Assembly (NCBI RefSeq): GCF_000485795.1 | Contig: NZ_AXZL01000076.1 | Span: 559,895-583,894, forward strand | Source of the DNA: Shewanella decolorationis S12 | Lineage (GTDB): Bacteria > Pseudomonadota > Gammaproteobacteria > Enterobacterales > Shewanellaceae | DNA: 24,000 bases | Direction of reading: 5' to 3' | In this document: positions 2,611 through 17,317 of the stretch, in pieces | How the letters are laid out: each line of letters starts with the position of its first letter | How positions within the stretch are numbered: the first letter of the stretch is position 1 | The notes under the pieces: generated by a model | Databases searched by the model: none | Told to the model about the DNA's origin: nothing | The model's input: the letters and a program-made list of their open reading frames with translations, nothing else | Made by a program: the position numbers and the translations under genes

Positions 2611-2633
2611 GATGCGGCTTTACCGCCGGAGTC

Positions 2634-2682
2634 ATTGCGGCCTAACGGCCGAGGTGAATCAAGATCGTGGGGCTTCACCCTC
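2634..2682 (+). repeat. REP-like ~50-nt hairpin unit, copy U1 (degenerate)
   Basis: attgcggcctaacggccgaggtgaatcaagatcgtggggcttcaccctca. It shares the cggcc-N4-ggccg hairpin and the gtgggg..cttc..accc module with the units at 2748, 5741, 5859 and 5934. Confidence 0.7.
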
Positions 2683-2747
2683 AATCAATTGTGATGATTT
2701 GTTTGGTGTATCACTAACAAAGTTATCGCTGTGAATCGCGATTAGAA

Positions 2748-3038
2748 ATTGCGGCCTTACGGCCGAGATGAATCAAAGTCGTGGGTCTTCAACCCACACC
2801 CGACCAAGAGGGGATCAACAGCAATTCCCTCTTGGATCTCCCTTGCCGCCCCTAGCGAAGTTACATGCATTAGAGACTGGCCTTGGTCTTATGGATAAAT
2901 TGCTATCGCTTCCGAAGGATGCGTCCCTGCACCTGCGAAAGCTAGCCGGTCATCCATGACCGGACTCACGCAATTTATTCCAACGCCCCGCGGCAACTTC
3001 GCAGGGGAAGGTGAACTGCTGGTGTATTGGTGTTGGCT
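2748..3038 (+). repeat. Long (~290 bp) structured repeat, copy L; its outer 60 nt form REP-like unit U2. Candidate ncRNA or ssDNA-structure element.
   Basis: Aligns end to end with the reverse complement of 5506-5797, at roughly 85-90 % identity by eye. The copies differ by compensatory changes in three hairpins. They also share perfectly identical 69-nt and ~47-nt blocks. Confidence 0.85.
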
Positions 3039-3163
3039 GCGGTTAACTGAAAAAGATATACATGTTTCATCTTTGAAGAACATTAACACAAAAGTTTAAT
3101 AGATGGATGTAATTGATTATGCGATACTTTAGGTAACGTAGAAAACTCTAACTGGATTAATGA

Positions 3164-4204
3164 ATGTCTTCAGCAGCAACTGTACCTTCAACAGCTACGC
3201 CTACTAAACAACAGGTATTGTTGAAAGGATTAGAAAGCACAGGTGAGCAATCTTTTGCTCGTGTAGTCGGAGCGAATTACGGCTTCCGCATTTCTAATCG
3301 CTGGGAGAAAACTGCTGTTAATATTGACGAAGATATAAAGTCAACGAATAGCAAGTACCAAAATTGTACAGTTGATAATTTAGAGAACCTGGTTGATAGA
3401 GTCATTATATCGGCTAATCATCATTACACTATTTACAAAGTTTCACAGAAAGATGCAATCCAAATCAGGCAGGAATTGTCAGCCTTAGTTGGACAACCTG
3501 TTAACAATATCTTTGCTCAAACTTACCCCGCTTTAGTCGATTTTAACTCCGTTAATCCTGCCGCAGGGGAGTACCTTTGTAAAGTAGCTGATATGGGAGA
3601 TGGAATTGCTTGTATCTTTGCGTCTATAGTAAAAGAATCGCTACCAGGGTATCGAACTATGACTGCTGGAGTGATTACCTCACAGTACTTTCATACTGTC
3701 TTTGTACCTTACGCTGCCGATAGAATCGAGGTTCGGATAACAGATAATGCTCCAACAAGGTACCATGAGAAACACGCTACAGCGATCAAAATTGAATTCC
3801 AAAATATTATTGGTCAAAAAGGAGTTCACTACCCAACCACACAAGTGAATTTCTTTAAATGTATTGAATCTTATTTTAATGATCCAACTTCAGGTCGAAT
3901 AGCGCATGCAATTTTGACTACAGGTCAAGATAGTAAAGATGCGGAATTGAAAAGCTTACGAAGTAAAGATTACTGTGCCAGAACGCAGCAAGTTGTTGAT
4001 AAAAAGAACAACTTCAACTACGTTTGCCGGGCTATTTTACTTAGAAAGCCCTACACAGGAATCAGTACTGGTGAGATGGATATCAGCTTTTTTCCTCACA
4101 AAAACACATGGGAAGCAAATTTTTGCTGGTGCGTACAAGTAAAAAAACCGCAAACAAGTGCAGCTTTGAATTTAATCATTACTGATGCTATAGCGAGAAG
4201 CTAA
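3164..4204 (+). CDS. Hypothetical protein, 346 aa, no family recognised
   Basis: Long ORF in AT-rich DNA, where random ORFs of this size are unlikely. It is first in a tightly packed three-gene set; its stop is 2 nt before the next ATG. The SD is weak. Confidence 0.75.
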   Translation: MSSAATVPSTATPTKQQVLLKGLESTGEQSFARVVGANYGFRISNRWEKTAVNIDEDIKSTNSKYQNCTVDNLENLVDRVIISANHHYTIYKVSQKDAIQIRQELSALVGQPVNNIFAQTYPALVDFNSVNPAAGEYLCKVADMGDGIACIFASIVKESLPGYRTMTAGVITSQYFHTVFVPYAADRIEVRITDNAPTRYHEKHATAIKIEFQNIIGQKGVHYPTTQVNFFKCIESYFNDPTSGRIAHAILTTGQDSKDAELKSLRSKDYCARTQQVVDKKNNFNYVCRAILLRKPYTGISTGEMDISFFPHKNTWEANFCWCVQVKKPQTSAALNLIITDAIARS

Positions 4205-4206
4205 TA

Positions 4207-4620
4207 ATGAGTATTGAAAGTAGGATTAAGGAATATTCGGCTAGACTCGATCGGTTGGCCGAGAGGCTAAAAGATGAGGATTCATCTAATGTCAATATAT
4301 ACAGAAATTTCTTAACTTTTGTTTCTGATAATCCAGATCATACTTACTATCCAATAACTAAGTTACTTACTGCAGCCAAGTGTAAAGATGCCAATCAAGC
4401 TCTAGATGTGGCAAATTATTTCTCAGTGGGTAGAAATGCACTACTAAACGTTACATTTTGCTATTTTGATTTCGATGGCACTGATATCAGAATTGATAGA
4501 GAGTGCTTTATTGATAGCCTCAATAACAATACTCCACCTGTTGAAGATGAGACTGGTTATCCAATAGATAACTTCGAGCCATCGCGACTAGGTTTTTATT
4601 GTAACTTGATTAGCGAGTAA
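4207..4620 (+). CDS. Hypothetical small acidic protein, 137 aa
   Basis: ORF starting 2 nt after the upstream stop (gctaaTAATGagt). Its composition matches the neighbouring ORFs. No domain recognised. Confidence 0.7.
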   Translation: MSIESRIKEYSARLDRLAERLKDEDSSNVNIYRNFLTFVSDNPDHTYYPITKLLTAAKCKDANQALDVANYFSVGRNALLNVTFCYFDFDGTDIRIDRECFIDSLNNNTPPVEDETGYPIDNFEPSRLGFYCNLISE

Positions 4621-4628
4621 GTTGTGAC

Positions 4629-5462
4629 GTGAATAAAACCGATCAAGAGTTGTTTGAAGTTTTAATATCAACGCCAGAAGGTAAAAAGAAGCTTCAACAA
4701 ATAGCGAAATCTTGTGAAAATCATTATAACGCTTTCATAGATGTCCTATATGCTAGACTGGATACTATCTTTAAAAAGCTAGAAGATTCAAGGGATAAGC
4801 ATTTTTCACATGATGAAGATTCAATAACCGGAGTTATTGCTGGGCGGCTTGAAGAAGCCGGATATATTGCTACAGAACAAACAAAGAAAAATGGTGCTGT
4901 AGATTTAACTGTTCAGCTAGGTGATCATAAGTGGATTGCTGAAGCTAAGATAGCTTACTCAAACAGTAAAATATTAGAGGGATTGTTACAACTACTAACT
5001 CGTTATGTCACAAGAGACGAGCACGCTGGATTACTGGTTTATATCAAAAAAAACAATAGTAAAATGGTGTTAGAAGATTGGAAACGTTATTTAGAAGGTT
5101 GTGATGGTCTGAAATCGTACATAGCAAATAAAAATCCTGAAGTTAAAGATGATCTAGAGTGCATTCTTAACAATGTGGAAACTACCGATATTAATAATTT
5201 CTCTTTTAATTCTAAACATAATCTTGTCTGTGGTTCTTCAATTAAAGTCCAACATTTTTGTGCTGATCTTTATTTTAACCCTGCAGACATTAGTGGTAAC
5301 AGCAGTAAAAAACAAAGAAAAGACAATGCTATTAATAATTTAGCGAATTTATATTTTGAGCATTTAGATTCAAATAATAGTTTCGATAGTAATAAGTGTA
5401 TTGAGTTTTTAGAGAGATTGTTTAGAGATTTAGACCCCGACGATATAAGTCTAGACGAATAG
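4629..5462 (+). CDS. Hypothetical protein, 277 aa, with a PD-(D/E)xK nuclease-like core motif
   Basis: GTG start 8 nt after the upstream stop. Residues 60-125 read ...DEDSITGVIAGRLEEAGY...NGAVDLTV...HKWIAEAKIAY...LLQLLTRY. This fits helix-E / strand-D / strand-ExK / helix-Q of restriction-endonuclease-like folds (D92, E105, K107). The C-terminus is Asn/Asp-rich and of low complexity. Confidence 0.7.
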   Translation: MNKTDQELFEVLISTPEGKKKLQQIAKSCENHYNAFIDVLYARLDTIFKKLEDSRDKHFSHDEDSITGVIAGRLEEAGYIATEQTKKNGAVDLTVQLGDHKWIAEAKIAYSNSKILEGLLQLLTRYVTRDEHAGLLVYIKKNNSKMVLEDWKRYLEGCDGLKSYIANKNPEVKDDLECILNNVETTDINNFSFNSKHNLVCGSSIKVQHFCADLYFNPADISGNSSKKQRKDNAINNLANLYFEHLDSNNSFDSNKCIEFLERLFRDLDPDDISLDE

Positions 5463-5505
5463 GCTCCACGAAATATGGGACAGGCACAACTCTTTTGGGA
5501 TTTAG

Positions 5506-5797
5506 AGCCAACACCGATATAACAGAAGTTCACCATCCCCTGCGAAGTTGCCGCGGGGCGTTGGAATAAATTGCGTGAGTCCGGACATGGATGTCCGGCT
5601 AGCTTTCGTAGGTACAGGGACGTTGCCTTCGGAAGCGATAGCAATTTATCCATAAGACCAAGGCCAGTCTCTAATGCATGTAACTTCGCTAGGGACGCCG
5701 GGGGATTTCCAAAAGGGGAACAGGCGTTTTTCCCCTTTTGGTCGGGTGTGGGTTGAAGACCCACGACTTTGATTCACCTCGGCCGTTAGGCCGCAAT
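5506..5797 (-). repeat. Long (~290 bp) structured repeat, copy R (inverted relative to copy L); its outer end forms REP-like unit U3 (5741-5797)
   Basis: The reverse complement aligns with 2748-3038. It begins 44 nt after the stop of the third island ORF. Confidence 0.85.
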
Positions 5798-5858
5798 CAT
5801 TCACATACCCACAGCGATAATCTTGCCAATTCAAACGCTAAACAAACCAGCATTATTA

Positions 5859-5914
5859 TCGGGTGTGGGGTGAAGCCCCACGACTTTGATTTACCTCGGC
5901 CGTAAGGCCGCAAT
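5859..5914 (-). repeat. REP-like hairpin unit, copy U4
   Basis: The reverse complement reads attgcggccttacggccgaggtaaatcaaagtcgtggggcttcaccccacacccga. Its second stem gtgggg/ccccac covaries with gtgggt/acccac in U2 and U3. Confidence 0.75.
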
Positions 5915-5933
5915 CACTAAACTTCTACATAAG

Positions 5934-5984
5934 GTATGGGTTAAAGCCCCACGACTTTGACTTACCTCGGCCGTAAGGCCGCAA
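5934..5984 (-). repeat. REP-like hairpin unit, copy U5, abutting the stop codon of the 5987..6556 gene
   Basis: The reverse complement reads cttgcggccttacggccgaggtaagtcaaagtcgtggggctttaacccatac. It starts 2 nt after the TAG of the upstream minus-strand gene. Confidence 0.7.
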
Positions 5985-5986
5985 GA

Positions 5987-6556
5987 CTAACTTGCAACAC
6001 AAAGATTTTGCTGAATCTTCCAACGACGTTCCATGAGTGGAATCGAAAAACCATAACACACCACTACAATCAAAGGTTGAAGCTGAAAGCTCAACTCAGG
6101 CCATAACATAAAGGCTGCCACGCAAGCCACAGTGCGCACAATCGCATGCACAATGGCCACCTTTTGCGCCGCTAACACGCCGAAAACCAACCACATTAAT
6201 CCTGTTTGTACAGCAAGGGCGAAGGGCAAGGCTAAATAGTTTTCCATAAAAAAGGGAATACTGATGCTAAAGGTTAAAAAACTCATCCCCATCGCAGCCA
6301 AAAACACAGTCTCAAACCAATTACGATCAGCGCTTTTCTTGAAGGAGATATTCTCACCGGTGAGACGTGAGACTCCCATAGCAAGATAGACAATAGAACC
6401 CGTGCCGATAAATGTTGCCATCACCATTTGCGATGCTGGCAAAATAAAACTCAAGATAAACAATAGCGTCCATACAATCATGCCTGATACAGGCATAGCT
6501 AAAGCACGTTTTTGGCGGTATTCGATAAGTTGTTGATCCAGTGATTGATGTTGCAT
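5987..6556 (-). CDS. Hypothetical polytopic inner-membrane protein (~190 aa)
   Basis: Five or six hydrophobic segments. I prefer the internal ATG at 6556 (MQHQSLDQQLIEYRQK...), which is preceded by a strong SD (caAGGAGGcttaatcATG). The track start at 6643 has no such SD. Confidence 0.7.
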   Translation of the reverse strand: MQHQSLDQQLIEYRQKRALAMPVSGMIVWTLLFILSFILPASQMVMATFIGTGSIVYLAMGVSRLTGENISFKKSADRNWFETVFLAAMGMSFLTFSISIPFFMENYLALPFALAVQTGLMWLVFGVLAAQKVAIVHAIVRTVACVAAFMLWPELSFQLQPLIVVVCYGFSIPLMERRWKIQQNLCVAS

Positions 6557-6635: not shown

Positions 6636-6651
6636 GATGACAAATGTCATC
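6636..6651. promoter_or_regulatory. 7-2-7 perfect inverted repeat gatgaca-aa-tgtcatc; candidate operator upstream of the membrane-protein gene
   Basis: Centred ~87 bp upstream of the ATG at 6556 and just upstream of a ttgctgaca (-35-like) string on the minus strand. The 2-nt centre is too small for a hairpin loop, so a dimeric protein site is more likely. Confidence 0.3.
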
Positions 6652-6718
6652 GGTGGGAATTAACAATGGAACAATCGCTGATAAGCCCAGATTGGAACAT
6701 TGCAATATGCCAGTGGTA

Positions 6719-7426
6719 TTACCCCTCAATATCACCAAGGCGAAGCGCAATACGAATCGCCTCTGCTGTGGTCGCTACGCCCAGTTTTATCCGAATATTG
6801 CGTAGATGGTTTTCAATTGTTCTTGTCGAAAGGCCGAGTGCAAGGGCGATATCGCCTTGTCGTTTACCTAATGCAGTCCATGACAGCACTTGCTTTTCAC
6901 GTTTTGAGAGCGTTTGAGTTTGCGGTTCTTGAGCCTCTAATAGACGACGAGCGGCGGCAAAAGCAGCGCTAGACAACAGAGTTAGCTCGAGGCGAGCCTT
7001 GGCGGAGCTGTCGATGGATTTGCCGCCAAGGCTCATTGCGCCCTCTAGGCCAAGGGGACCAAAGAAGGGAATTTGTAAGCCGTGTATACCCGCCCCTTTT
7101 GGTGTTTTAACGATATGATATTCTTCGTCTTTACCATCAATGGCCTTGGTCCAAAAAAAGGGTTGGGCAGTTTCCAAGATATGGTGAGTCACGGGGCACT
7201 GACGGATATAACTGGTAGCATCGACGGTTTTGCCATTGTCAAACCAATCGCCTTCAATCCAATAAATACGCTCTATGATGCCATCGAGACTCGAATAGGC
7301 TGAGAACAGGACAATTCTATCGTAACCATAAAGGTGAGCCCGCTGTCTAAGCCCTTGTTGAATAGCTGAAAAATGGCGACAAGTTTCAAATTCTAATAAC
7401 AAGCGGGTTATATCATCAGCGGGCAT
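6719..7426 (-). CDS. LuxR-family transcriptional regulator (LuxR solo: autoinducer-binding-like N-domain plus C-terminal HTH)
   Basis: The C-terminus LSKREKQVLSWTALGKRQGDIALALGLSTRTIENHLRNIRIKLGV is a canonical LuxR/GerE HTH. The ~160-aa N-domain has the size and layout of an AHL-binding domain. No luxI-like gene is present in the window. Confidence 0.8.
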   Translation of the reverse strand: MPADDITRLLLEFETCRHFSAIQQGLRQRAHLYGYDRIVLFSAYSSLDGIIERIYWIEGDWFDNGKTVDATSYIRQCPVTHHILETAQPFFWTKAIDGKDEEYHIVKTPKGAGIHGLQIPFFGPLGLEGAMSLGGKSIDSSAKARLELTLLSSAAFAAARRLLEAQEPQTQTLSKREKQVLSWTALGKRQGDIALALGLSTRTIENHLRNIRIKLGVATTAEAIRIALRLGDIEG

Positions 7427-7432
7427 CTTGTT

Positions 7433-8299
7433 TTACCCTTTTTCAACAGAATTGAGTAAGACCTTGGCCGCGAGTTGGCCTAGGGAGTTACCAGCCAAAG
7501 GACTATCTCCTGTCAGTAACTTACGATCCTGATGAGCTTGCCCTGAAATCCCTTCATTAAGGATTTCAAACCCAATGGCTTTAAGCTTTTCGCCAAACTT
7601 CCAAGTGAGGTGTCCTGGCATATAACCAATATCTGGTGTTTGGGCATCCATAGCATCAGGGAAAGCAACAATTTGGTAGCCCGCAAACAAAGGGTCATCG
7701 CCAACAGCAAGAAATGCAGCAGGCCCATGGCACAATGAAATGATAAATTTATCTTGCTCCATTGCCCATTTGATTACCGCTTTCATATCTTCACTCTCAG
7801 GCAAACCGATAAGCGCTCCATGGCCACCAGGTATAAATACCCCTATATAATCAGAGTCTTCACTAAGGGCATTTTGTACAACGTCGGCTAATTTAAGCGG
7901 CTGCCTAAAAGATGAGTGATATTTTTGGTATAAACCTTTGACCTCTTCATCCTCCGATGGCATAGCCCACCATTCAAATTTAACGGGATTACCTGACAGG
8001 GTGGCTATATCAAATGAAAAGCCTGCTTTATCAAGATGGTACATAGGAAGTAATGTTTCAACAGGATGATTACCAGTTGAGAAAAACGTCCCATTATCCG
8101 TCAATAAATAGCGCTCATCGGCGCCAACAAGCAGAATTTTCCAGCGCCCGCCTTTGTACGGGTTGGGGTAATCTGCACCACTGAGATCAGATTTCGCTGC
8201 CGTAAATTGACTTAATGAATAAGGTGAAGGGAAAAAAGCATTATCTTCTGCGGGGTCAAGGGTGGGACGCTTATCGTCATGCACTGCCGTCATAGTCAT
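7433..8299 (-). CDS. hchA: Hsp31-type glyoxalase III / protein deglycase (DJ-1/PfpI superfamily)
   Basis: Near-collinear with E. coli HchA as I remember it: [59 protein letters not shown] (nucleophile Cys), [19 protein letters not shown]. Confidence 0.92.
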
Positions 8300-8685
8300 T
8301 TCCTCAGCTATGTTAAATTAGGTTTCCATTATAGAGACTGATGTTAAATGCAAAATAAGGGATTTCCCCTAAAAATACAGAATATTTATAACAGTTCATC
8401 CACTTCTATAGCATGTCAGACTAAATCAATAGATTTATTTCCTTATTTTCAACATATCTCTATGTTCATCCTACAATGATTCACTTGAAAAATATTTTAC
8501 TAGCCATATCTTTTAGCTACATTTTTCAGCATCGAATTGTCTGGCATTCGACTAAAAGCTGGAAAATTATTGCGTCCAACTCACGCTATATACTGTGGCG
8601 CATAGCACAGCGTTAACTCAGTATGTTATTGTTTTGGCTTCATTGATTTGATTTTTACGCTTTAACCACTAAGGGTTTACTCCAT

Positions 8686-9174: not shown

Positions 9175-9178
9175 TCAA

Positions 9179-9210
9179 TAAAAAAGCCACTGTAATCAGT
9201 GGCTTTTTTA
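9179..9210. terminator. Bidirectional rho-independent terminator between the convergent genes yqhA and the transporter gene
   Basis: A-run, stem gccactg (9186-9192), loop taat, stem cagtggc (9197-9203), then a T6 run. It would work on either strand. Confidence 0.75.
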
Positions 9211-9219
9211 TTCTGTTGC

Positions 9220-10860: not shown

Positions 10861-11733
10861 CTAACAATATGCCAGTAGCACTAGCTCGAGCCGATGCGCC
10901 AGCAGGTGCTGCTGTTTAATGCTAATACGTTGCTGAGTTAACCAAAGGCTTAATGGCCGCCAATTTTTTAAATCGGCTGACTGTAAATATTTAGCCTGAG
11001 GCGCTTGCTTGGCAAAGTCATCAGCGGAATTAATTTGTGGGATAGCGAGTAACTCGTTGGGCGCAAAAAGCGCTAACTGCGGCACAATACAATGGGTCAT
11101 GCCCGTTAAGGTATGGGCAATTTGCAACCCTGCGGGGTCAAGATCGGTAAAGGCAATAATCGGCATTTTACCTACCATCGCCTGTAAAAACTGTCGCACA
11201 CCAATGGGTGAATGGTGGCCGCTACCACGGTAAATCACCATAACGCGGCTAAGTTCGGCAGGTAGGCGCGCTTGAGTGATGGCATCGAATATATCTAGGT
11301 TTTCAACCACTAAGATGGCGTTAACATTAAGATCATGGCAAAGCTGCTCTGCTTCATCTAAGGGGATACGTAACGAAGAACGCGCAGACATCCCCACGGG
11401 AGATGACTCAAACCCGAGATACTTCAACAAAACATACTCGGCTTCGGGGCGAATACTCGCCAGCTTTTCATTCTGGCTTTGGGCGGACATGGCAATACGG
11501 TCTAGATTAAAATCCAGCGCCTGTAAATCGACGCCCTCTTTTGCCAACACGCCCTGGCGCAGCAACTCAAAATCCCGCGGCGCAAAACACAAATATTTTT
11601 CTGCACCATCCAGCTCGCCCACTTCTAACTCGCGGTAAATCGTTCGCCAATTCGGGGTGAGTTTCACCCTTGGAGAGCGGTTAAGATAAACGCCCTCCAA
11701 GAGTTGCAACTGCTGCCGACCTAGGCGAGCCAT
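10861..11733 (-). CDS. JetD/MksG-like Toprim-domain protein (DUF2220-like), short form of 290 aa
   Basis: AILVVENLDIFDAI (E144), then VMVIYRGSGHH, then IIAFTDLDPAGLQIA (D197, D199). This reproduces the E...DxD Toprim signature and spacing I associate with the Wadjet JetD C-terminal domain. It is the last gene of the operon and overlaps the upstream gene by 13 nt. Confidence 0.6.
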   Translation of the reverse strand: MARLGRQQLQLLEGVYLNRSPRVKLTPNWRTIYRELEVGELDGAEKYLCFAPRDFELLRQGVLAKEGVDLQALDFNLDRIAMSAQSQNEKLASIRPEAEYVLLKYLGFESSPVGMSARSSLRIPLDEAEQLCHDLNVNAILVVENLDIFDAITQARLPAELSRVMVIYRGSGHHSPIGVRQFLQAMVGKMPIIAFTDLDPAGLQIAHTLTGMTHCIVPQLALFAPNELLAIPQINSADDFAKQAPQAKYLQSADLKNWRPLSLWLTQQRISIKQQHLLAHRLELVLLAYC

Positions 11734-12944
11734 AATTCCACATCACGGATAATAAAGTTACCGCTGTAGATCGGATGGGGTTCGCCTAAGGGTTCTAACT
11801 CGAAATAGGCTTTATGCTCATCGGGTAAGCCGTCGTAGCCGCCAATCACTTGATAAATCCAGCTTTCAGCATCCCATGGCAGGGCTTTTTCGGCTAAGTA
11901 GTCGAGCGCCGACTGACGTAAGCCAGACTCAATCACATCAACAAAATAGGCATCTACGGCTTGCTTGAGTGGATTATCAGGAATATCAAAGTCTTCACTC
12001 TGAGTAAGCGACACGCTCACATCCTGCTCACGCACTGTTTCTATCACGCCCTGACGGCTAATCGCCTTGATATGGGCGACGATGTTCATCAGCTCAAACT
12101 CTTGGCTGGCGTTATGCACATCCACAGACGCTGGGGCCAACAGCACTTCGGCGCGATTGAAAAGGCTTGGGATTTCCTTGTGCGACACATGGTCTGCAGG
12201 GCGATAATCAGGATGCAAATCTGTGTACAGTAACCAGCCCTTAAGCAAGCGAGTACGACCACGAATTTGCCTAAAGCGCCCGAGAAGTTCCAGCAACCTA
12301 CCCTGCACCACACTGAGTTCCTGGGCGCAGTCGCTCATGGTCTCCTGCAAGGTCGTGACCAGCAACTTACGCAACTCACGGATATCACCGGCGATTTCAC
12401 CTAATTCGCTAAACTGGAACATCTCCAAACCATTGAGCAATTCAGACACTTGGCTCTGGGCGAGTTCGTTTTCACGGATCTTAGCGTTAATGGTGCCGAC
12501 ATAACCGAACTCGTTGTTGATCCGCCCCCACAACACGCGGATGGAGTAGCGCAAACTGTCGGCAAAGCTATACACATGCTCACTTAAATCAGACAGATAC
12601 GCCTCGGCGGCGCTGTAGTCTGAGCTGTGGCGCGCCTCTTTATAGTGGTCGGCCAAGGTCTTAATGGTGGCGAGCGCCGAGCCGACGTTGGAGTCGATTT
12701 GGCGATTGCGCTCATCACTTAAGCCCTCTTCGAGCAAGGCACGCACCGAGCGTTTAAGGCGCAGCTCTTGGTCTGGCTCTGGGCGCCATAAAATCCCCGC
12801 CTGCTTGAGTTTTTCAACCACGGCGGGATCATGGCTCTCTTCCTTGAGCGAACCGGCCAGATAGGCATCCATAATGATGTCAGCATGGCGACCTAACTGT
12901 TTGAGCAGCTTCACCCCAGCCTGATGTAAGTTACTGCTCATCAC
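11721..12944 (-). CDS. Putative kleisin-like subunit (MksF/JetA-analogous), 407 aa
   Basis: Assignment rests only on position between the KITE-like and Toprim genes, on size, and on predicted helical character. No diagnostic motif was seen. A strong SD (ccAAGGAGGccgtgATG) precedes the start. Confidence 0.35.
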   Translation of the reverse strand: MMSSNLHQAGVKLLKQLGRHADIIMDAYLAGSLKEESHDPAVVEKLKQAGILWRPEPDQELRLKRSVRALLEEGLSDERNRQIDSNVGSALATIKTLADHYKEARHSSDYSAAEAYLSDLSEHVYSFADSLRYSIRVLWGRINNEFGYVGTINAKIRENELAQSQVSELLNGLEMFQFSELGEIAGDIRELRKLLVTTLQETMSDCAQELSVVQGRLLELLGRFRQIRGRTRLLKGWLLYTDLHPDYRPADHVSHKEIPSLFNRAEVLLAPASVDVHNASQEFELMNIVAHIKAISRQGVIETVREQDVSVSLTQSEDFDIPDNPLKQAVDAYFVDVIESGLRQSALDYLAEKALPWDAESWIYQVIGGYDGLPDEHKAYFELEPLGEPHPIYSGNFIIRDVELWLA

Positions 12945-12983
12945 GGCCTCCTTGGTTGATGCTATGCGTTATTGTCCAAGGCA

Positions 12984-13646
12984 TCATAGTAAATCCCGCT
13001 GCGTCGCCGTTTCCGCCTGCGCTTCAAGGCTTAGGCCTTCGGTCTCGTCGATAAAGCGGATCACTTCGTACAGGTAATCCAGCTTGCCGGTGGCGATATA
13101 AATTTGTTTTTCAACGTTAGGGCGCACCAGATAACCAAGCTCCACTAAGCGTTTGAACACTAACTTAATTTGCGCATCACTATTGGTACTGGTTGAGCCG
13201 AATAAGCGGTATTGGCTGAGTTTGGCCAACTGCTCACGAAACGCGGGCGTATCTTCAATTCGGCTTTGCAGCTCTGTTAATCGCACTGGCGCGCCTTCGC
13301 TTAAGGGAGCATCTTGGCCGCTGGCTTCCTGCACTAATACCAGCCACTCCACCATGGGGATAAGTGCCTGACAAATATCCTTAAACTGCGATGAAATCAC
13401 CTTGCGCTCGCTCTCGCCTAACTGCAAATAACCGCAGAAAAACACATCCCCCTCGGCGGCCGAAGCCACGGTGCGATTGATTTGATTAAGATAAGCCTCG
13501 ACCCGCTCGCGGGTACTGTGATTTTTTAATGCGCGCCAGCCATCTTCATTGGTGGTGCGGCAAATAAACTCACCTTTTAGCAAGAGTTCGATAATGGCGC
13601 CCGTGCCGACTAATACGGTTTGGTTTGACTCATTCATGGCACTCAT
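12984..13646 (-). CDS. MksE/JetB-like (KITE-type) subunit, 220 aa
   Basis: The N-terminal pattern IIELLLKGEFICRTTNEDGWRALKNHSTRERVEAYLNQI...AAEGDVFFCGYL resembles the LLKG-x-hh...W..L....V..Y...G.aF pattern I recall for DUF4194/MksE proteins. Its ATG shares one base with the stop of the SMC-like gene (TAATG). Confidence 0.5.
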   Translation of the reverse strand: MSAMNESNQTVLVGTGAIIELLLKGEFICRTTNEDGWRALKNHSTRERVEAYLNQINRTVASAAEGDVFFCGYLQLGESERKVISSQFKDICQALIPMVEWLVLVQEASGQDAPLSEGAPVRLTELQSRIEDTPAFREQLAKLSQYRLFGSTSTNSDAQIKLVFKRLVELGYLVRPNVEKQIYIATGKLDYLYEVIRFIDETEGLSLEAQAETATQRDLL

Positions 13647-16600
13647 TAGATGGCCTCCTTGCTCAGGCGTTTACTCAACAAATCGGCAATCGGATTGGCT
13701 TTGGGCTTCACCACCTGCAACTTCTTGGTTTGTTTATTAATAATGTAACGGTTCTCGAACAGGTTCAGCACTTCTGACTCTGGGTTCGGGAAGGCGCCTA
13801 ACACGCTGATATTGTTGTTACCACAGGCATCGAAAATCTTCTTCACGTTGGTATGGTGCAGCGTACCCAGCTCGTCGATCGGCCAGTGAATGGTCACATC
13901 GGCACGGCCACGTAGCAAGCGCGTGAATGCCAACAGGAACTTACATAAAATCAGGTAAGCCATACCGTGGCTCGAGGATTCGTTCAGCTGTCTGTCGGTG
14001 CGGATAATCAGGTCGCTATTGCCCTCTTTGAGGCGCAACTCGATTTCCAGCAACTTAGCAATACCGCCGGTTAAGGCCGCGCGGCCAATAATGTCTAAGG
14101 CGCGGCGCATACTGTTGGTGTATTCCTCATCGGGCAGACCATTAAAGCCGTCGGCCTTCCATTGTTTGAAGGCTTTAACGAATTGCTCAAGCTCAGGCCA
14201 AAACTCTAATTCGCTGATCTTAGAGCGAATGCGGACCGCAGATTCCGATACGCCATCGAGGAATAACTCTTCGCCCACTTCGCGGGTAATACGCGCACTC
14301 TGGGAGGCGATTCGACGATCGATATCGGCAAGTACATCGTAGAAGGCGGTTAAATCGACCCCGAAGATCCGTCCCTGTTCACGCAGCGCCATAATCGATT
14401 GCGGCACCATCACATTGAGTAACTGTTCTAGCTGCGGCACAAGCTTGCGGTAATCCAACAGGCGAATACCTTTGTCGTTGATAAAGCTCGACTCTTCACG
14501 GGCGCGCTCCCAAGTCTCGGCTAAACCTGAGCCTGACTTGCTGGCAATCACAGAGTCGAAATGCTCCACATATTGCTTAACCGAGCCCATCAAATAATCG
14601 CGTTTTAGCAGTAAATCTTCGCCCTGACGCAGGCGCTCACCAAGGCTACCCTGGGCCTCTTCATTGTTGGCGGGCAATTTCAGCTCGGCCAACTTACGCA
14701 TCACGGCGCGCAGTTTAGTTAAGTTTTCAGAGGCTTCAATCTGCGCCGCATCCGAGGCCTTACGCTCGGTCTCGAGTTGTTGGCGGCGGGTCTTCACTTC
14801 TTGAGTCTTGGCTTTAAGCTGCTGATCGATTTCCGAGGCGGCGCGTTTCACGTCGCTTAACTGGGTTTGCAGCTTGGGCTTACGGATAAGCCAAGTGTGT
14901 TGATACCAATCGTCGAAGCGCAATACTTCGCTGCGACGCTGCTCGGCGCGGCTGATTTTGGTTTCAAGCTCACGGATTTGTTGCTTGAGTTTAAGGATAT
15001 TGTCCTCATCCACACCACGGGATTTAAGCTCGTTTTTGTACCAGGTTTCACAGGCTTTTTGCTCGGCCTTAGCGCTTTCGCGGCGGGCGTCGATAGTCGC
15101 CTTGATTTGCCCGAGTTGATTGTCGAGCGCGCCAATGACTTCCTGCCAGTAGGCTTGTTTTTCCATCCGCGCTTCGAGCGCCTGCTCCTTTTGCTCTTCG
15201 AGCCAGAGCTGATGCTGATGCTTAAGCTGCTTTAGCTCGCCATCGAGCTGAGTTAAGCGCTGCTGGGCAAAGGCTTTACGCTCGGCCAGCGCCTTGTTGA
15301 TCTTGTCCTGCTCACTGCGTTTTTCATCGAACAGACGACGTAAATCATCGCGGCTATTTTTGTAAGCCGTGCGGGCAAAGGTGAGTTCACGACTGAGTTT
15401 ATCCAGCTCAACGTTAATCGCCACCAGCAGAGATTCGGCCTCGGCCTGTAATTCCTGCGCGCTTTGCAGAGCCTCTTCGGCCTTGCTTAAACGAATACGC
15501 AGTTCCTGCTCTGAGGCGGCATATTCAGGCACATCGATGGCTTTAAGATCTAAATGCACCCCAAACACAGTGTCGCTCTCGCCCGTGACCGTTGGGTGTA
15601 AATCGGTGCGGTGCAACAACTCGGGGGCAATCACTTTACCCAGACTCTGCTCCCAACCTTGGGCTTCCTTACGCAGGAATTCGAGCAAGGTATGGGACTG
15701 CGGGAACAGCATATGGTGCAGTTCATCGAGCGCGGTTTGGCGCTCGTTAACCCGCAGGCTGGCGATACGCAGCGCTTCGTTAGCTTGGTCGCGTTTGGCG
15801 CGCAGCTTACGCTCATCGCTAGTTAAGCGTTCCACCTTAGCGTTACAGCTTTCTTGCTCTTCGTCGGCGCGGTGAATCCGCTCGTCGAAAATCGCAAGGC
15901 TTAACTTTTCTTCCTCGGTGTAGGTCACACCATCGACACGTAATTTAAGCTCGGCGGCATTGAGTTTGAATTGATATTCCTGCTCGCTAAAGCTTGCCTT
16001 GCCCGCATCCATTTGGCTGCGCCATTGGGCTTCGAGGGCATCGAGATCGGCTCTTGCCACTTCACGCTGTTTGTCGCGCGCTTCGCGTTGCTTGTCTTGG
16101 TCCGCGTGTAAGCCTTCGAGCTCGCGGTTTAACTGCTCGCCAATTTTGCTGCGGCGGGCATTGTAAGCCGCTTCAATATCTTGGTGTTTTTCGGTTTGTA
16201 ACTTATGGCGCTCGCTTAAGTTTTCCATGTCCGCGCGCCAGTTTGGCAGCATGTCCAAGTCAGCCTTAGCTTGCTCAATATTGGCATCTAAAAAGGCGCC
16301 GTGCTGATCTTCAATGGCATCTAACTCATACTCGCACTTAGCCACATCGCCCTTGGCGGCGGATAGGTCGAGGTTTAACTCATCACGCACTTCTTTCCAT
16401 TCGTCATCCAACATTCGAAGCTTTAAATTCAGCTCCTTAGACAAGGTTTGTTGGATCTCTAACCGATCGGCCTCTAAGGTTTCGTCATTGCGATAGCCAC
16501 GGGACAGGCTCGAGAGACGCATCTCGGCGCTGAGCAGTTGGTTAAATTCCTGCTCGAGCTTTTCAAACTCGGGACGAATGACTTCAAAGCCTTGGATTAA

Positions 16601-17317
16601 CTGGCTCTCGCGGATCCACGCCTCGACGCGTTGCGGATTGAGGCGTGAGCTAGGTGGATTTACCCCGTCTTCTTCCAAAATGGCGGCGATCATCGATTTG
16701 ACCGTTTCCATTTTGCCTTCTTTGGAGTGCACCGCCTTGGCGAGTTTTTCGATATGGCGCAGTGAATGCTCACCTTCACACAGGGCAAATTGGCGCGCAT
16801 AGGCTCGCAGTTCGCTACGGTTGCTGCCCGTGCTTAACAAAGTGCGATCGTTTTGAATAATCGCGCGATATTCGCGGGTGTTGAGCAAGTTGGTGGTGGC
16901 TACGCCCTGGCGTTTTAAATCCCGGCCGAGTTCTGCCATGGTGTGGCAGAGAATAGTGTCACCATTTTGCGATTTAATATAATCGCTTAACTCAAAACCT
17001 TTGGCGATAAAGCGGTAGTTCACCCCTTTACCATCACCCGCCGATGCCAGCACGGCTTGATAGAGCAAGCCATCGGCCTTTTGGTATTCGTAAATGATGT
17101 AGCTTGAATCGTGTGGCAAGTACCAACGCTCGAAACTATCGCGGGTTGAAGGCACCACGCGGCTAGGATATTCGCCATAAAATACCGGCACTAAACGTTG
17201 CAGAGTGGTTTTACCCGAGGCGTTAGTACCACAAATATTGGTATGGCCATTGAGGGCGAGTTCCACAACGCCCGGAAGGTGCGTATCAATCAGCACAATA
17301 CGAATCAAGCTTGGCAT
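13646..17317 (-). CDS. SMC/Rad50/MukB-like ABC ATPase with long coiled coils, 1223 aa (DUF3584-like)
   Basis: The Walker A motif GTNASGKTT (res 30-38; nt 17204-17230) was verified by translation. Roughly 600 residues in the middle are E/K/R/Q/L-rich with heptad-like character. The C-terminal head has SSSHGMAYLIL (signature-like) and VTIHWPIDELGTL (Walker B; D1148/E1149 at nt 13871-13876). Confidence 0.8.
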   Translation of the reverse strand: MPSLIRIVLIDTHLPGVVELALNGHTNICGTNASGKTTLQRLVPVFYGEYPSRVVPSTRDSFERWYLPHDSSYIIYEYQKADGLLYQAVLASAGDGKGVNYRFIAKGFELSDYIKSQNGDTILCHTMAELGRDLKRQGVATTNLLNTREYRAIIQNDRTLLSTGSNRSELRAYARQFALCEGEHSLRHIEKLAKAVHSKEGKMETVKSMIAAILEEDGVNPPSSRLNPQRVEAWIRESQLIQGFEVIRPEFEKLEQEFNQLLSAEMRLSSLSRGYRNDETLEADRLEIQQTLSKELNLKLRMLDDEWKEVRDELNLDLSAAKGDVAKCEYELDAIEDQHGAFLDANIEQAKADLDMLPNWRADMENLSERHKLQTEKHQDIEAAYNARRSKIGEQLNRELEGLHADQDKQREARDKQREVARADLDALEAQWRSQMDAGKASFSEQEYQFKLNAAELKLRVDGVTYTEEEKLSLAIFDERIHRADEEQESCNAKVERLTSDERKLRAKRDQANEALRIASLRVNERQTALDELHHMLFPQSHTLLEFLRKEAQGWEQSLGKVIAPELLHRTDLHPTVTGESDTVFGVHLDLKAIDVPEYAASEQELRIRLSKAEEALQSAQELQAEAESLLVAINVELDKLSRELTFARTAYKNSRDDLRRLFDEKRSEQDKINKALAERKAFAQQRLTQLDGELKQLKHQHQLWLEEQKEQALEARMEKQAYWQEVIGALDNQLGQIKATIDARRESAKAEQKACETWYKNELKSRGVDEDNILKLKQQIRELETKISRAEQRRSEVLRFDDWYQHTWLIRKPKLQTQLSDVKRAASEIDQQLKAKTQEVKTRRQQLETERKASDAAQIEASENLTKLRAVMRKLAELKLPANNEEAQGSLGERLRQGEDLLLKRDYLMGSVKQYVEHFDSVIASKSGSGLAETWERAREESSFINDKGIRLLDYRKLVPQLEQLLNVMVPQSIMALREQGRIFGVDLTAFYDVLADIDRRIASQSARITREVGEELFLDGVSESAVRIRSKISELEFWPELEQFVKAFKQWKADGFNGLPDEEYTNSMRRALDIIGRAALTGGIAKLLEIELRLKEGNSDLIIRTDRQLNESSSHGMAYLILCKFLLAFTRLLRGRADVTIHWPIDELGTLHHTNVKKIFDACGNNNISVLGAFPNPESEVLNLFENRYIINKQTKKLQVVKPKANPIADLLSKRLSKEAI

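Follow-up and report, generated by a model that had tools for sequence, protein, structure and literature searches.

Sequence comparison shows that the inverted repeat around a three-gene island in Shewanella decolorationis S12 consists of two copies of an element that recurs within Shewanella genomes, is highly structured and resembles a non-coding RNA. We think it reasonably probable that these outward-facing RNA genes frame a cassette hotspot driven by recombination. The window referred to below is the whole stretch of DNA that was analysed (24 kb).

The island is bracketed by divergent copies of one element

The initial annotation described 2748-3038 and 5506-5797 as an inverted repeat, and a repeat search of the window confirmed it at ~90% complementarity; the concern that the similarity might vanish under a proper alignment was unfounded. 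The search returned one arm piece of 212 nt (2827-3038/5506-5717, 91% complementary) and one of 82 nt (2748-2829/5716-5797, 89% complementary). The 1-nt offset between these pieces is the 1-nt indel that had been seen by eye, and the ~30 differences then counted came to ~28 mismatches when computed. A 290-nt repeat with 90% identity far exceeds chance expectation. The inner arm ends lie 126 nt before the start of ORF1 (3164) and 44 nt after the stop of ORF3 (5462), in line with the first description, and the weak outward similarity around ttatcgctgtg was recovered as an inverted pair (2718-2733/5810-5825). When compared with a profile of the element family, each copy proved to extend farther toward the cargo, as far as a conserved motif at its 5′ edge (3047-3075 on the left, 5470-5498 on the right). 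The mirror symmetry also extends outward, via ~60-nt linkers, to extra copies of the 3′-terminal ~58-nt module at 2626-2685, 5858-5920 and 5930-6006 (repeat search and nhmmer). The features of the region are as follows.

2626..2685, minus strand: S1, extra 3′-terminal module; outer limit of the unit toward fbp
2652..5910, no strand: block missing from the fbp/DUF7010 intergenic region of S. mangrovisoli (3,259 bp)
2686..2738, no strand: left linker; contains ttatcgctgtg and is weakly similar, inverted, to the right linker
2739..3075, minus strand: left element copy, read toward fbp; 5′ edge 3047-3075, 3′ end at GC hairpin 2752-2765
2781..2797, minus strand: terminator-like GC hairpin of the left copy (terminator scan)
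2907..2966, minus strand: core of the left copy, same two hairpins as on the right; Rfam TwoAYGGAY, 28.3 bits
3077..5463, plus strand: cargo, three-gene cassette (ORF1 3164-4204, ORF2 4207-4620, ORF3 4629-5462)
5470..5806, plus strand: right element copy, read toward DUF7010; 5′ edge motif 5470-5498
5578..5637, plus strand: right-copy core, made of two adjacent hairpins; Rfam TwoAYGGAY RF01731, 28.6 bits
5748..5764, plus strand: terminator-like GC hairpin of the right copy (terminator scan), followed by GACUUUGAUU
5807..5857, no strand: right linker; 96% identical to the same-position linker of L030
5858..5920, plus strand: S2, extra 3′-terminal module; outer limit of the unit toward DUF7010
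5930..6006, plus strand: S3, third and more diverged terminal module (repeat search, nhmmer); abuts the DUF7010 stop codon

The left copy matched the family profile at 3056-2739 (nhmmer, E 4e-88) and shares 99.1% identity with one from a different locus in S. cutis (L033). The right copy matched at 5488-5806 (E 7e-82), is 97.0% identical to the fbp-side copy of locus L030 from another species and folds as RNA at -119.5 kcal/mol (z -3.4). With its start only 7 nt past the ORF3 stop codon, it would give the cargo operon its 3′ UTR. In the right core, hairpin 1 (5581-5598) carries the loop CAUGGAUG and hairpin 2 the loop CAGGGACG at 5615-5622; in the left core, hairpin 1 occupies 2946-2963 and the complement of loop 2 is at 2922-2929.

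The outer modules have a similar make-up. S1 consists of a truncated terminator hairpin and a GC palindrome (2638-2651), and was found as an nhmmer match to profile positions 259-315 as well as in several repeat-search pairs; in L047 a full element starts at this position, which is also a breakpoint of the S. mangrovisoli indel. S2 combines a terminator-like hairpin (5865-5881) with a GC palindrome (5897-5910; repeat search, nhmmer and terminator scan), and homology with the empty site picks up again at 5897. S3 is present in the empty site too, and was found in L077 and L062. The left linker also lies behind the copies in L025, L046 and L030.

The element is a Shewanella family with a conserved RNA-type structure

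An exact 20-base core pattern recovered 45 stretches; Shewanella accounted for 43, with several in a genome, and an nhmmer profile search added further diverged copies. The family is a ~335-nt element that was found in at least 12 Shewanella species, at 5-6 copies or more per genome; no matches were found in the phage, viral-contig and E. coli collections. One copy is carried by a conjugative Shewanella megaplasmid. The initial annotation had asked if the 290-bp unit is multi-copy, and several copies per Shewanella genome were indeed found; of the origins it offered, two copies of an independent element was right, as the family is dispersed. Constant pairing around cargo, which it had also raised, was not seen: many copies are solitary in the stretches viewed, mostly 8-kb pieces, beyond which some of them may have a partner.

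RNAalifold applied to 48 copies gave 52 pairs, 23 of which show compensatory changes. Across these copies the base pairs are kept in 96.7% of cells, against 40-57% when partners were slid, and the covariation score was 0.267 against 0.05-0.08; none of 500 shuffles reached the observed pairing or covariation values. This conserved secondary structure had been missed in the initial annotation. At three positions most copies have a G·U pair, and G·U cells outnumber A·C cells by 123 to 19 (hand count from the pair table). The terminator-like hairpins are on the outward-reading strand, as are the Rfam TwoAYGGAY matches of all eight copies that gave one (27.7-29.4 bits). The G·U pairs and the terminator-like 3′ hairpin argue that the folded strand is the one reading outward from the island. 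Covariation would also be maintained by a structure formed in single-stranded DNA.

At its 5′ edge the element has the conserved motif (G/A)AAAGAUnGGACAGGCAC...UCUUU, a possible promoter or operator; a sigma-70 consensus scan at this edge gave no convincing promoter. In the middle, a long closing helix surrounds two adjacent hairpins with C-ANGGAN-G loops, ~28 nt apart, in both of which GGA is invariant and both of whose stems show compensatory changes. A long variable hairpin follows the core. The 3′ part is a GC hairpin with a U-rich tail resembling an intrinsic terminator in both window copies, its pairs (alignment columns 318-330) being conserved with covariation, and a palindromic GC (REP-like) hairpin forms the 3′ end. 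A ‘type A’ sub-family has an extra 5′ module with a sharp start at ...TAAC and an imperfect palindrome inside that resembles attC; variable genes begin just past this module, which is absent from the window.

The core resembles TwoAYGGAY RNA and is predicted to bind CsrA

The TwoAYGGAY motif (Rfam RF01731) was described by Weinberg et al. 2010 (PMC2864571), and CsrA binding was predicted for it by Gardner and Eldai (PMC4333381). It was the sole recurrent Rfam family to match the Shewanella copies, on the same strand every time, with scores below the Rfam gathering threshold of 43 bits (28.6 and 28.3 in the window, 27.7-29.4 in six further copies). To our knowledge TwoAYGGAY has been an orphan with no demonstrated function since 2010, CsrA binding being the sole proposal so far. 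Both RNAs have two adjacent A-Y/N-GGA-Y/N-loop hairpins inside a long outer helix. Loop 1 is AUGGAU in most copies and fits AYGGAY; loop 2 usually reads AGGGAC, where G takes the place of the first Y, and in a few copies AAGGAU or AGGAU. The outer P1 helix is present as well, columns 59-71/219-233 and 88-96/163-172 enclosing both hairpins, and the P1-type consensus helices 1 and 3 show compensatory changes. One Psychromonas member of the original TwoAYGGAY alignment also has CAGGGACG as its second loop, and among the Psychromonas members there are, as in Shewanella, an upstream AAGAUUGGACACCCAAAUCUU motif (AAGAU...AUCUU with a GGACA centre), hairpin modules arrayed downstream and a single divergent pair. 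The sequence profile of the Shewanella copies did not detect the Psychromonas TwoAYGGAY sequences, and the Shewanella unit is longer, adding the long 3′ hairpin, the terminator-like hairpin and the GC palindrome. These likenesses suggest that the element is related to TwoAYGGAY, which its core resembles. A link between TwoAYGGAY and variable defence cargo was not described in the literature searched.

A C-ANGGAN-G hexaloop presenting GGA is the optimal CsrA/RsmE site. The element has two GGA loops, which by the spacing rule from the literature would lie within the reach of one dimer, and it may bind CsrA. It shares with CsrB, CsrC and RsmX/Y/Z the GGA in C-ANGGAN-G hexaloops, the terminator-like 3′ end and the several copies per genome, but has two predicted sites per RNA where the known sponges have 4-22. 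Matches to the Rfam CsrB or Rsm families were not found, and we take the upstream motif not to be the GacA/UvrY box.

Divergent pairs enclose low-GC defence-type cargo

The three window ORFs encode proteins of 346, 137 and 277 aa, and the GC content of the cargo is ~0.36 against ~0.48-0.50 in the flanks. The span 3077-5463, exactly, is 86% identical in nucleotide sequence to a metagenome contig (L073) that has no arms; arm-free copies of the cassette occur in four other contexts. The three-gene unit is also found in Vibrio and Aeromonas, with a remote copy in a Vibrio prophage, and is accompanied in all contexts by ~85 nt of its own upstream sequence. Cargo homology stops short of the element edges by 1-2 nt and 6 nt, junctions tight enough that they could reflect a site-specific process rather than general recombination. 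The structural model of the ORF3 protein (pLDDT 87.6), with conserved D92...E105-x-K107, gave weak fold matches, the best being Hjc and HindIII, and the protein is predicted to be PD-(D/E)xK-like.

Neighbouring copies in opposite orientation were found at 13 loci; all 13 pairs are divergent and none is convergent. The genes between pairs have a GC content of 0.33-0.40 and encode TIR, NYN, OLD ATPase plus TOPRIM, HicB, DEAD helicase, Pycsar-type TIR, SMC-like ATPase, GmrSD, SIR2 and AIPR domains. Genes 3′ of the copies are conserved between species and genes 5′ of them are not, and at other loci the cargo lies in either orientation relative to the flanks. No recurrent protein or transposase adjoins the ~46 copies; an IS110 gene in L044 is a separate insertion.

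The fbp/DUF7010 site itself was found with three different cargoes and as one empty allele. The window holds the three-gene module with the PD-(D/E)xK-like protein, L047 (whose fbp protein is identical to that of the window) an AIPR gene, and L030 genes for a 343-aa TPR protein and a 108-aa protein. The same site thus holds different defence-type cargo in related genomes, as in a defence-gene hotspot. Among strains, the DUF7010 junction has fbp, degS or an MFS transporter gene as its neighbour.

Mosaic arms and an empty allele point to past exchange

Comparison with L030 divided the right arm in two. Its outer part (terminator hairpin, GC hairpin, linker and S2) is 91-96% identical to the L030 copy at the same position, whereas the inner part is only 72-73% identical to that copy and 96-99% identical to the L030 copy on the opposite side. 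The inner arm types have swapped sides in L030 relative to the window and L047, a pattern compatible with a flip or with exchange in either orientation. Between species, the outer arm parts and linkers found at the same position are orthologous. In other pairs the arms are only 57-73% identical, making the window pair (90%) unusually similar. As read from these alignments, the arms are recombinant mosaics.

In S. mangrovisoli (L077) the fbp/DUF7010 site is empty and keeps one hybrid GC palindrome, TGCGGCCTAACGGCCGCAAT. Both ends of the indel (2652-5910) are inside palindromic GC hairpins. Because more distant species have an occupied site and a closer one an empty site, deletion is favoured, though insertion by some hairpin-targeting enzyme could also account for the difference. 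The initial annotation had suggested the ends of a mobile or invertible unit. That description stands in so far as arm-cargo-arm is a presence/absence unit, precisely absent in S. mangrovisoli, and the inner arm parts occur on the opposite side of the locus in another species. It fails for a classical transposon, since the element lacks terminal inverted repeats of its own and an associated transposase.

Weighing the explanations for cargo exchange

We propose that two back-to-back element copies between the convergent core genes fbp and DUF7010 would form the frame of the hotspot, with foreign low-GC defence-type genes packed tightly between the two 5′ edges. Homologous recombination would replace the cargo together with inner arm parts, crossovers falling in short blocks common to all copies. 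As the two sides mirror each other, a cassette could enter or flip in either orientation, with the terminal palindromic hairpins as the points where the whole block could come or go. The element would be transcribed, would terminate and insulate cargo transcription, and on the right would serve as the 3′ UTR of the cargo operon; the cargo would be moved by recombination and not by a dedicated enzyme.

A non-autonomous mobile element is an unlikely but serious alternative. An enzyme encoded elsewhere, for example a REP-associated tyrosine transposase, would cut out the arm-cargo-arm unit and insert it into GC hairpins, recognising either the long arms or just the GC palindromes (a giant REPIN-like doublet). 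The precise absence of 2652-5910 with one hybrid palindrome left, the mirror symmetry reaching out to the GC hairpins, the multi-copy family, the inner arms on opposite sides in L030 versus the window and L047, the megaplasmid copy and the three neighbours of the DUF7010 junction all fit such an element. It is less easily reconciled with ~46 copies that have no transposase nearby and no protein recurring between pairs, with the divergence of other pairs' arms, with outer arm parts and linkers that are orthologous by position, or with the many solitary copies whose cargo ends at ordinary sequence on the other side. The cargo is, moreover, known without arms, the phage, viral-contig and E. coli collections gave no matches, and the species distribution of the empty site favours deletion. 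Several known classes were rejected. A classical transposon would not explain the lack of own terminal inverted repeats and of a target-site duplication beyond the palindromic hairpin; the palindrome at the indel ends is itself indistinguishable from such a duplication, and the window repeat search found no other flanking direct repeat. The arms are not the terminal part of a known IS, an outcome that the initial annotation had raised: no transposase lies in the window or beside the ~46 copies. A MITE does not fit a 5′ edge (GAAAGAU...) unrelated to the 3′ end (terminator hairpin plus GC palindrome).

Arm-arm recombination might instead flip the 2.5-kb segment as a switch that changes cargo expression. 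The swapped inner arm types are as expected after a flip, and 290 nt at 90% identity suffices for RecA-dependent inversion. We nevertheless regard a switch as improbable: the arms are equivalent and outward-facing, so a flip should alter nothing, the cassette keeps its own upstream region, cargo is found in either orientation elsewhere, and most pairs have arms too diverged for frequent exchange. Pfam scans of the 24 kb upheld the earlier statement that no transposase, integrase or recombinase is present, and hence no invertase; a Hin/Gin/Fim-type segment was rejected on this ground and on the length of the arms (290-335 nt), which are not short crossover sites. Folded single-stranded-DNA sites of the attC kind, into which a recombinase encoded elsewhere would insert cassettes, are suggested by cargo within 1-6 nt of the 5′ edges and by the ‘type A’ module with variable genes just beyond it. 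This reading, too, has little to recommend it in the window, where that module is absent; DNA folding leaves its R-box regions unpaired and gives only a weak fold (z about -2), the cassette is flanked by inverted, not direct, sites, the G·U-rich pairs and terminator-like 3′ end suit RNA better, and there is no integrase nearby. An integron cassette or attC cluster was rejected for the missing module and the inverted flanks. The unusual likeness of the window arms could point to a single local event that duplicated an intergenic stretch in inverted orientation and has no significance beyond this site, but each arm has a closer relative elsewhere (99.1% in S. cutis, 97.0% in another species) and dozens of copies covary, leaving this hardly credible.

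The proposed frame has partial parallels. Like REP/BIME/REPIN sequences, it has short GC-rich palindromes (CGGCC-N4-GGCCG) in gaps between convergent genes, in tandem and inverted arrangements and with indel breakpoints inside them; unlike those, in Shewanella the palindromes form the end of a structured unit that is far larger, the inverted ones lie 3.2 kb and not tens of bases apart, and no associated REP-type transposase was seen. The integron mobilization unit and Tn3-derived TIMEs are presumably similar in that inverted non-coding ~290-nt copies bracket cargo with no transposase inside. The Shewanella copies differ in having no terminal inverted repeats of their own or fixed-length target duplication, in being strongly structured and covarying, and in the high divergence of most pairs' arms. 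Integron arrays, Neisseria minimal mobile elements and Acinetobacter pdif modules, the last bounded by sites in inverted orientation, likewise have a fixed frame with different accessory genes per strain. At the Shewanella frame, however, no integrase or Xer-type site was found, the frame is a pair of ~335-nt RNA-like genes, and exchange apparently proceeds by general homology inside it, giving mosaic arms.

Implications for TwoAYGGAY RNAs and defence genes in Shewanella

The Shewanella branch gives TwoAYGGAY a testable genomic context, outward-facing pairs that frame interchangeable defence cassettes, with the empty-site allele and the mosaic arms as a record of past exchanges. Tentatively, and with considerable doubt, we suggest that TwoAYGGAY-type genes are working parts of a cassette platform for anti-phage genes. 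The paired RNA genes would act as markers and insulators of the slot, every captured cassette would gain a CsrA-responsive 3′ UTR and terminator, and cassettes would be exchanged free of orientation via the shared blocks and terminal palindromes, or by a hairpin-specific enzyme. If this platform were real, an RNA class orphaned since 2010 would have a biological role. If the link between RNA and cargo is only positional, the finding would still explain short-read assembly breaks and strain rearrangements in the region. If the link is functional, global post-transcriptional control by CsrA would be tied to how newly acquired immune genes are expressed or tolerated, defence genes would have a route for being swapped with no integrases, and the RNA would serve as a sequence landmark in searches for new defence systems, the three-gene module of the window being an example.

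Extent of the inverted repeat

A repeat search bore out the inverted repeat of the initial annotation, giving 2827-3038/5506-5717 (212 nt, 91% complementary) and 2748-2829/5716-5797 (82 nt, 89%). The two pieces are mutually offset by one base, in accord with the single 1-nt indel counted earlier, and a MAFFT alignment agreed. The inner-end distances also matched (ORF1 at 126 nt, ORF3 at 44 nt), the outer 'ttatcgctgtg' pair was present at 2718-2733/5810-5825 and, as had been stated, no transposase, integrase or recombinase is encoded in the whole 24 kb. The symmetry exceeds that first description. Both long arms terminate in a ~58-nt module made up of a GC hairpin, its U-rich tail and then a GC palindrome, and extra modules were found further out, always oriented like the neighbouring arm:

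2626-2685 (-): S1, extra ~58-nt module
2739-3075 (-): left arm, copy of a ~335-nt element, 5' edge motif at 3047-3075
3077-5463: cargo, with ORF1 (3164-4204), ORF2 (4207-4620) and ORF3 (4629-5462)
5470-5806 (+): right arm, second copy, 5' edge motif at 5470-5498
5858-5920 (+): S2, extra module
5930-6006 (+): S3, extra module

The cargo lies between the convergent core genes fbp and DUF7010; the true start codon of DUF7010 is downstream of the first ORF call. The fbp terminator hairpin, AAAAGCCACTG..CAGTGGCTTTTTT (2553-2601 region), recurs slightly altered 3' of the UPF0114 gene (9176-9212), and is followed by a second hairpin, GTTGTCGCGGAATGCGACAAT (2581-2601).

The arms are copies of a structured element

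The arms fold far below shuffled controls (z -3.4 and -3.7). RNAalifold on 48 copies gave 52 pairs, and compensatory double changes occur in 23 of these. In an independent count 96.7% of cells paired vs 40-57% with partners slid 1-3 columns, and the covariation score was 0.267 vs 0.05-0.08; none of 500 shuffles matched the observed pairing and covariation values. Hairpin 1 alone occurs as CCGGA/UCCGG, CCGGU/ACCGG, UCGGU/ACCGA, CUCGC/GCGAG, CUUGC/GCAAG and GCAGAC/GUCUGC. At three positions G·U predominates, and this pair was counted in 123 cells of the RNAalifold pair table vs 19 for A·C. A terminator scan detected the 3' GC hairpin, with GACUUUGAUU after it, in both arms. From the G·U pairs and this terminator-like hairpin we infer that the folded strand is the island-outward one, minus for the left arm and plus for the right. 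A scan for sigma-70 promoters at the 5' edge found none, and sigma-54, sigma-E and GacA-box assignments were rejected there after by-eye comparison, the consensus sequences not fitting. Some copies carry inserts inside the structure, such as a ~52-nt hairpin-forming one in the hairpin 1 loop of L013 (~4700-4760).

At gathering thresholds Rfam gave nothing in the window. The only family matching the copies was the orphan RNA TwoAYGGAY (RF01731), at 27.7-29.4 bits against a gathering score of 43 and always on the outward strand. The match spans two adjacent hairpins with loops CAUGGAUG and CAGGGACG, GGA being invariant in both. The likeness extends to Psychromonas ingrahamii members of TwoAYGGAY: one in the original alignment has CAGGGACG as its second loop, an upstream AAGAUUGGACACCCAAAUCUU motif resembles the Shewanella edge motif GAAAGAUGGGACAGGCAC..AUCUUU, small hairpin modules are arrayed downstream, and one pair is divergent (3670439-3669875 minus / 3672769-3673334 plus). 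Searching the Psychromonas TwoAYGGAY sequences with a sequence profile built from Shewanella copies gave nothing significant, and we therefore term the element TwoAYGGAY-like rather than a member. The window repeat is two copies of this TwoAYGGAY-like structured element. Its loops conform to C-ANGGAN-G, the CsrA/RsmE site. TwoAYGGAY has been proposed to bind CsrA (PMC4333381). For the Shewanella element, predicted CsrA binding is a lead.

The family is dispersed in Shewanella and paired back-to-back

The element is multi-copy: a 20-base core pattern retrieved 45 stretches from bacterial contigs (one genome per species), 43 of them in Shewanella; S. xiamenensis, S. profunda, S. hafniensis and S. 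cutis are among the species with 5-6 copies per genome. The remaining two stretches, from Pyrinomonadaceae, were dismissed as chance. A profile made from the found copies detected additional, more diverged copies within the same loci. The repeat is not the end of a known IS, a possibility raised initially. A 440-nt unit had no match among 50,697 phage records, IMG/VR viral contigs and 5,426 E. coli genomes, and a known mobile element was rejected as its identity, the sole match (71%) being to an RHS region of a Shewanella megaplasmid. A diverged, 3'-truncated copy lies amid RHS-repeat toxin genes on the 356-kb conjugative megaplasmid pSX1_LC6 of Shewanella sp. LC6 (L001, 230946-231112), with a Tn3-family transposase a few kb away.

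Where neighbouring copies have opposite orientations (13 loci: the window, L005, L009, L014, L025, L029, L030, L033, L039, L040, L044, L047 and stacked cases), the left copy is minus and the right copy plus in 13/13, so that both point outward; no convergent pairs were seen among them. Under random orientation the chance of this is ~1 in 8,000. Back-to-back pairing is a rule. Solitary copies occur too, the other side of the variable segment then being ordinary sequence (L031/L035, L019/L025).

The DNA between paired copies is 1-5 kb long with a GC content of 0.33-0.40. It encodes TIR, NYN plus OST-HTH, OLD-type ATPase with TOPRIM, HicB, DEAD helicase with a partner protein, Pycsar-type TIR, SMC-like ATPase, GmrSD, SIR2 and AIPR proteins. 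The 5' edge of the element lies 0-100 nt from cargo gene ends. Genes on the 3' side are kept across species and mostly convergent with the element (~28 vs 12), while those on the 5' side are mostly unique; no recurrent protein was found adjoining the copies. The L044 cargo has an IS110-family transposase gene (2773-3816), 75 nt from the 5' edge of a copy, and a DEAD-box helicase with a 238-aa protein that are possibly Hachiman-like. Outside the repeat, four minus-strand genes at 10861-17317 of the window encode a 1,223-aa DUF3584 SMC-like protein, an MksE-like protein, a 407-aa protein without domain match and DUF7281 plus Toprim. This cluster, which L076 and L077 also carry, resembles a Wadjet/JetABCD (MksBEFG-like) anti-plasmid system.

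A sub-family, type A, has several copies per genome (L002, L004, L006, L007, L010, L016, L020, L027, L032, L036, L038, L041, L043, L045). Its extra ~245-nt 5' module begins abruptly at ...TAAC|GTCTTAGTATTTATGCGCTGC..GCAGGGCATAAATCGCTTGTT, an attC-like imperfect palindrome, and just past it lies a divergently oriented gene of 90-364 aa that differs in each locus. Copies in L027, L041 and L043 have a 15-nt insert, AGCTCTTGATTTAAT, after GAATAG near the element core. In L032 the module occurs twice as direct repeats (2551-2684, 3479-3726) around a variable gene. The type A module is real and cassette-like. An attC-like explanation was dropped for the window because the module is missing there and folds weakly.

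The three-gene cargo occurs without arms

Contexts of the three-gene module as a unit without arms
Vibrio cyclitrophicus: beside an integrase
Metagenome contig (L073): within a 4.8-kb islet with 63-nt direct repeats and a resolvase
Aeromonas media
Vibrio tectivirus-like prophage (remote): accessory end

Nucleotide homology to the metagenome copy (86%) covers exactly 3077-5463, stopping 1-2 nt and 6 nt short of the element edges. The arms do not travel with the window cargo. The L073 direct repeat (3716-3778 and 8519-8581) comprises a gene 3' end and terminator and brackets the islet, whose resolvase genes are split; the islet resembles a small integrated element that duplicated its att site.

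No firm cargo function emerged from Pfam, NCBIfam or PADLOC, the one hit being a weak PDC-S54 match for ORF3. ORF3, confidently modelled (pLDDT 87.6), carries D92...E105-x-K107 as an invariant motif; its best, weak structural matches are the Holliday-junction resolvase Hjc and HindIII, making it a candidate PD-(D/E)xK-type nuclease. For the ORF1 model (pLDDT 81.4) no convincing structural neighbour was found. The protein families are rare (24-41 clusters each) and patchy in Vibrio, Aeromonas, Photobacterium, Agarivorans and Serratia. An anti-phage module would fit both these contexts and the putative nuclease domain.

States of the fbp/DUF7010 site

The site was seen in four states. Short-read assemblies break at the window repeats, with contigs stopping ~140 nt past fbp and the cargo left as a separate 2.6-kb contig.

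Content between the arms at the fbp/DUF7010 site
Window: three ORFs
L047 (fbp protein identical, flanks 98% identical): single AIPR gene
L030 (Shewanella MAG, flanks 95%): 343-aa TPR protein and 108-aa protein
L077 (S. mangrovisoli): empty

The 237-nt fbp-DUF7010 gap of S. mangrovisoli holds S3 and one palindrome, TGCGGCCTAACGGCCGCAAT, whose left part is the window S1 palindrome (2636-2651) and whose right part is the S2 end (5906-5914). Because this palindrome is a hybrid, the difference from the window is a 3,259-bp block (2652-5910) with breakpoints within palindromes. A pre-insertion state is possible; deletion would be the simpler reading, and is favoured because more distant species are occupied.

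Nearby, the window has a 1.95-kb segment (6650-8596) with a LuxR-type solo regulator (autoinducer-binding plus GerE, 6719-7426) and the glyoxalase III HchA (7433-8299), which is missing from L030, L008, L062, L076 and L077. At this position (DUF7010 start to UPF0114) other strains have a solitary element copy, which the window is without.

Mosaic arms and proposed exchange of cassettes

The window arms are mutually 90.1% identical, whereas those of other pairs share only 57-73%. A copy from another locus, in S. cutis, shares 99.1% identity with the left arm, and the fbp-side copy of L030 shares 97.0% with the right arm. Compared with the same-position L030 copy, the right arm is 91-96% identical in the terminator hairpin, GC hairpin, linker (between arm and S2) and S2, but 72-73% in the core and long hairpin, which are 96-99% identical to the opposite-side copy of L030. 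BLAST and segment-wise identities ruled out a whole-arm swap between the window and L030: the swap is confined to the inner two-thirds, and the outer parts are positional orthologues. In the L047 left arm the long hairpin is 99% identical to the window left arm and the core 94% to the DUF7010-side copy of L030. The breakpoints sit in blocks common to all copies (UCACC.UCCCCUGCGAAGUUGC, AAUGCAUGUAACUUCGCUAGGG, GGUCGGGUGUGGG). Such mosaics are the pattern expected if cassettes and adjoining arm sequence were exchanged by homologous recombination; as the sides mirror each other, they also fit either-orientation entry or flipping.

The main rival explanation is a non-autonomous arm-cargo-arm unit that would be moved by an enzyme recognising specifically the terminal GC hairpins. 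The S. mangrovisoli empty site is precise, as such movement would have it, and the junction is rearranged by strain in the S. xiamenensis group: past the DUF7010 3' end lies fbp (window, L030, L077), degS/degQ (L062-L065, where L062 is S. xiamenensis CP106874 and L063 is S. xiamenensis JBHFGN01) or an MFS transporter gene (L076, which has an assembly gap). These breaks fall in the terminal hairpin modules (compared with window 5900-6000), and the differing neighbours suggest chromosomal rearrangements between dispersed copies.

The TwoAYGGAY-like element probably constitutes an RNA gene that supplies its own terminator. Its RNA may do no more than mark and insulate the slot, may place the cargo under CsrA control, or may be active in the exchange itself. 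Two copies placed back-to-back would form the frame of a hotspot for defence cassettes.
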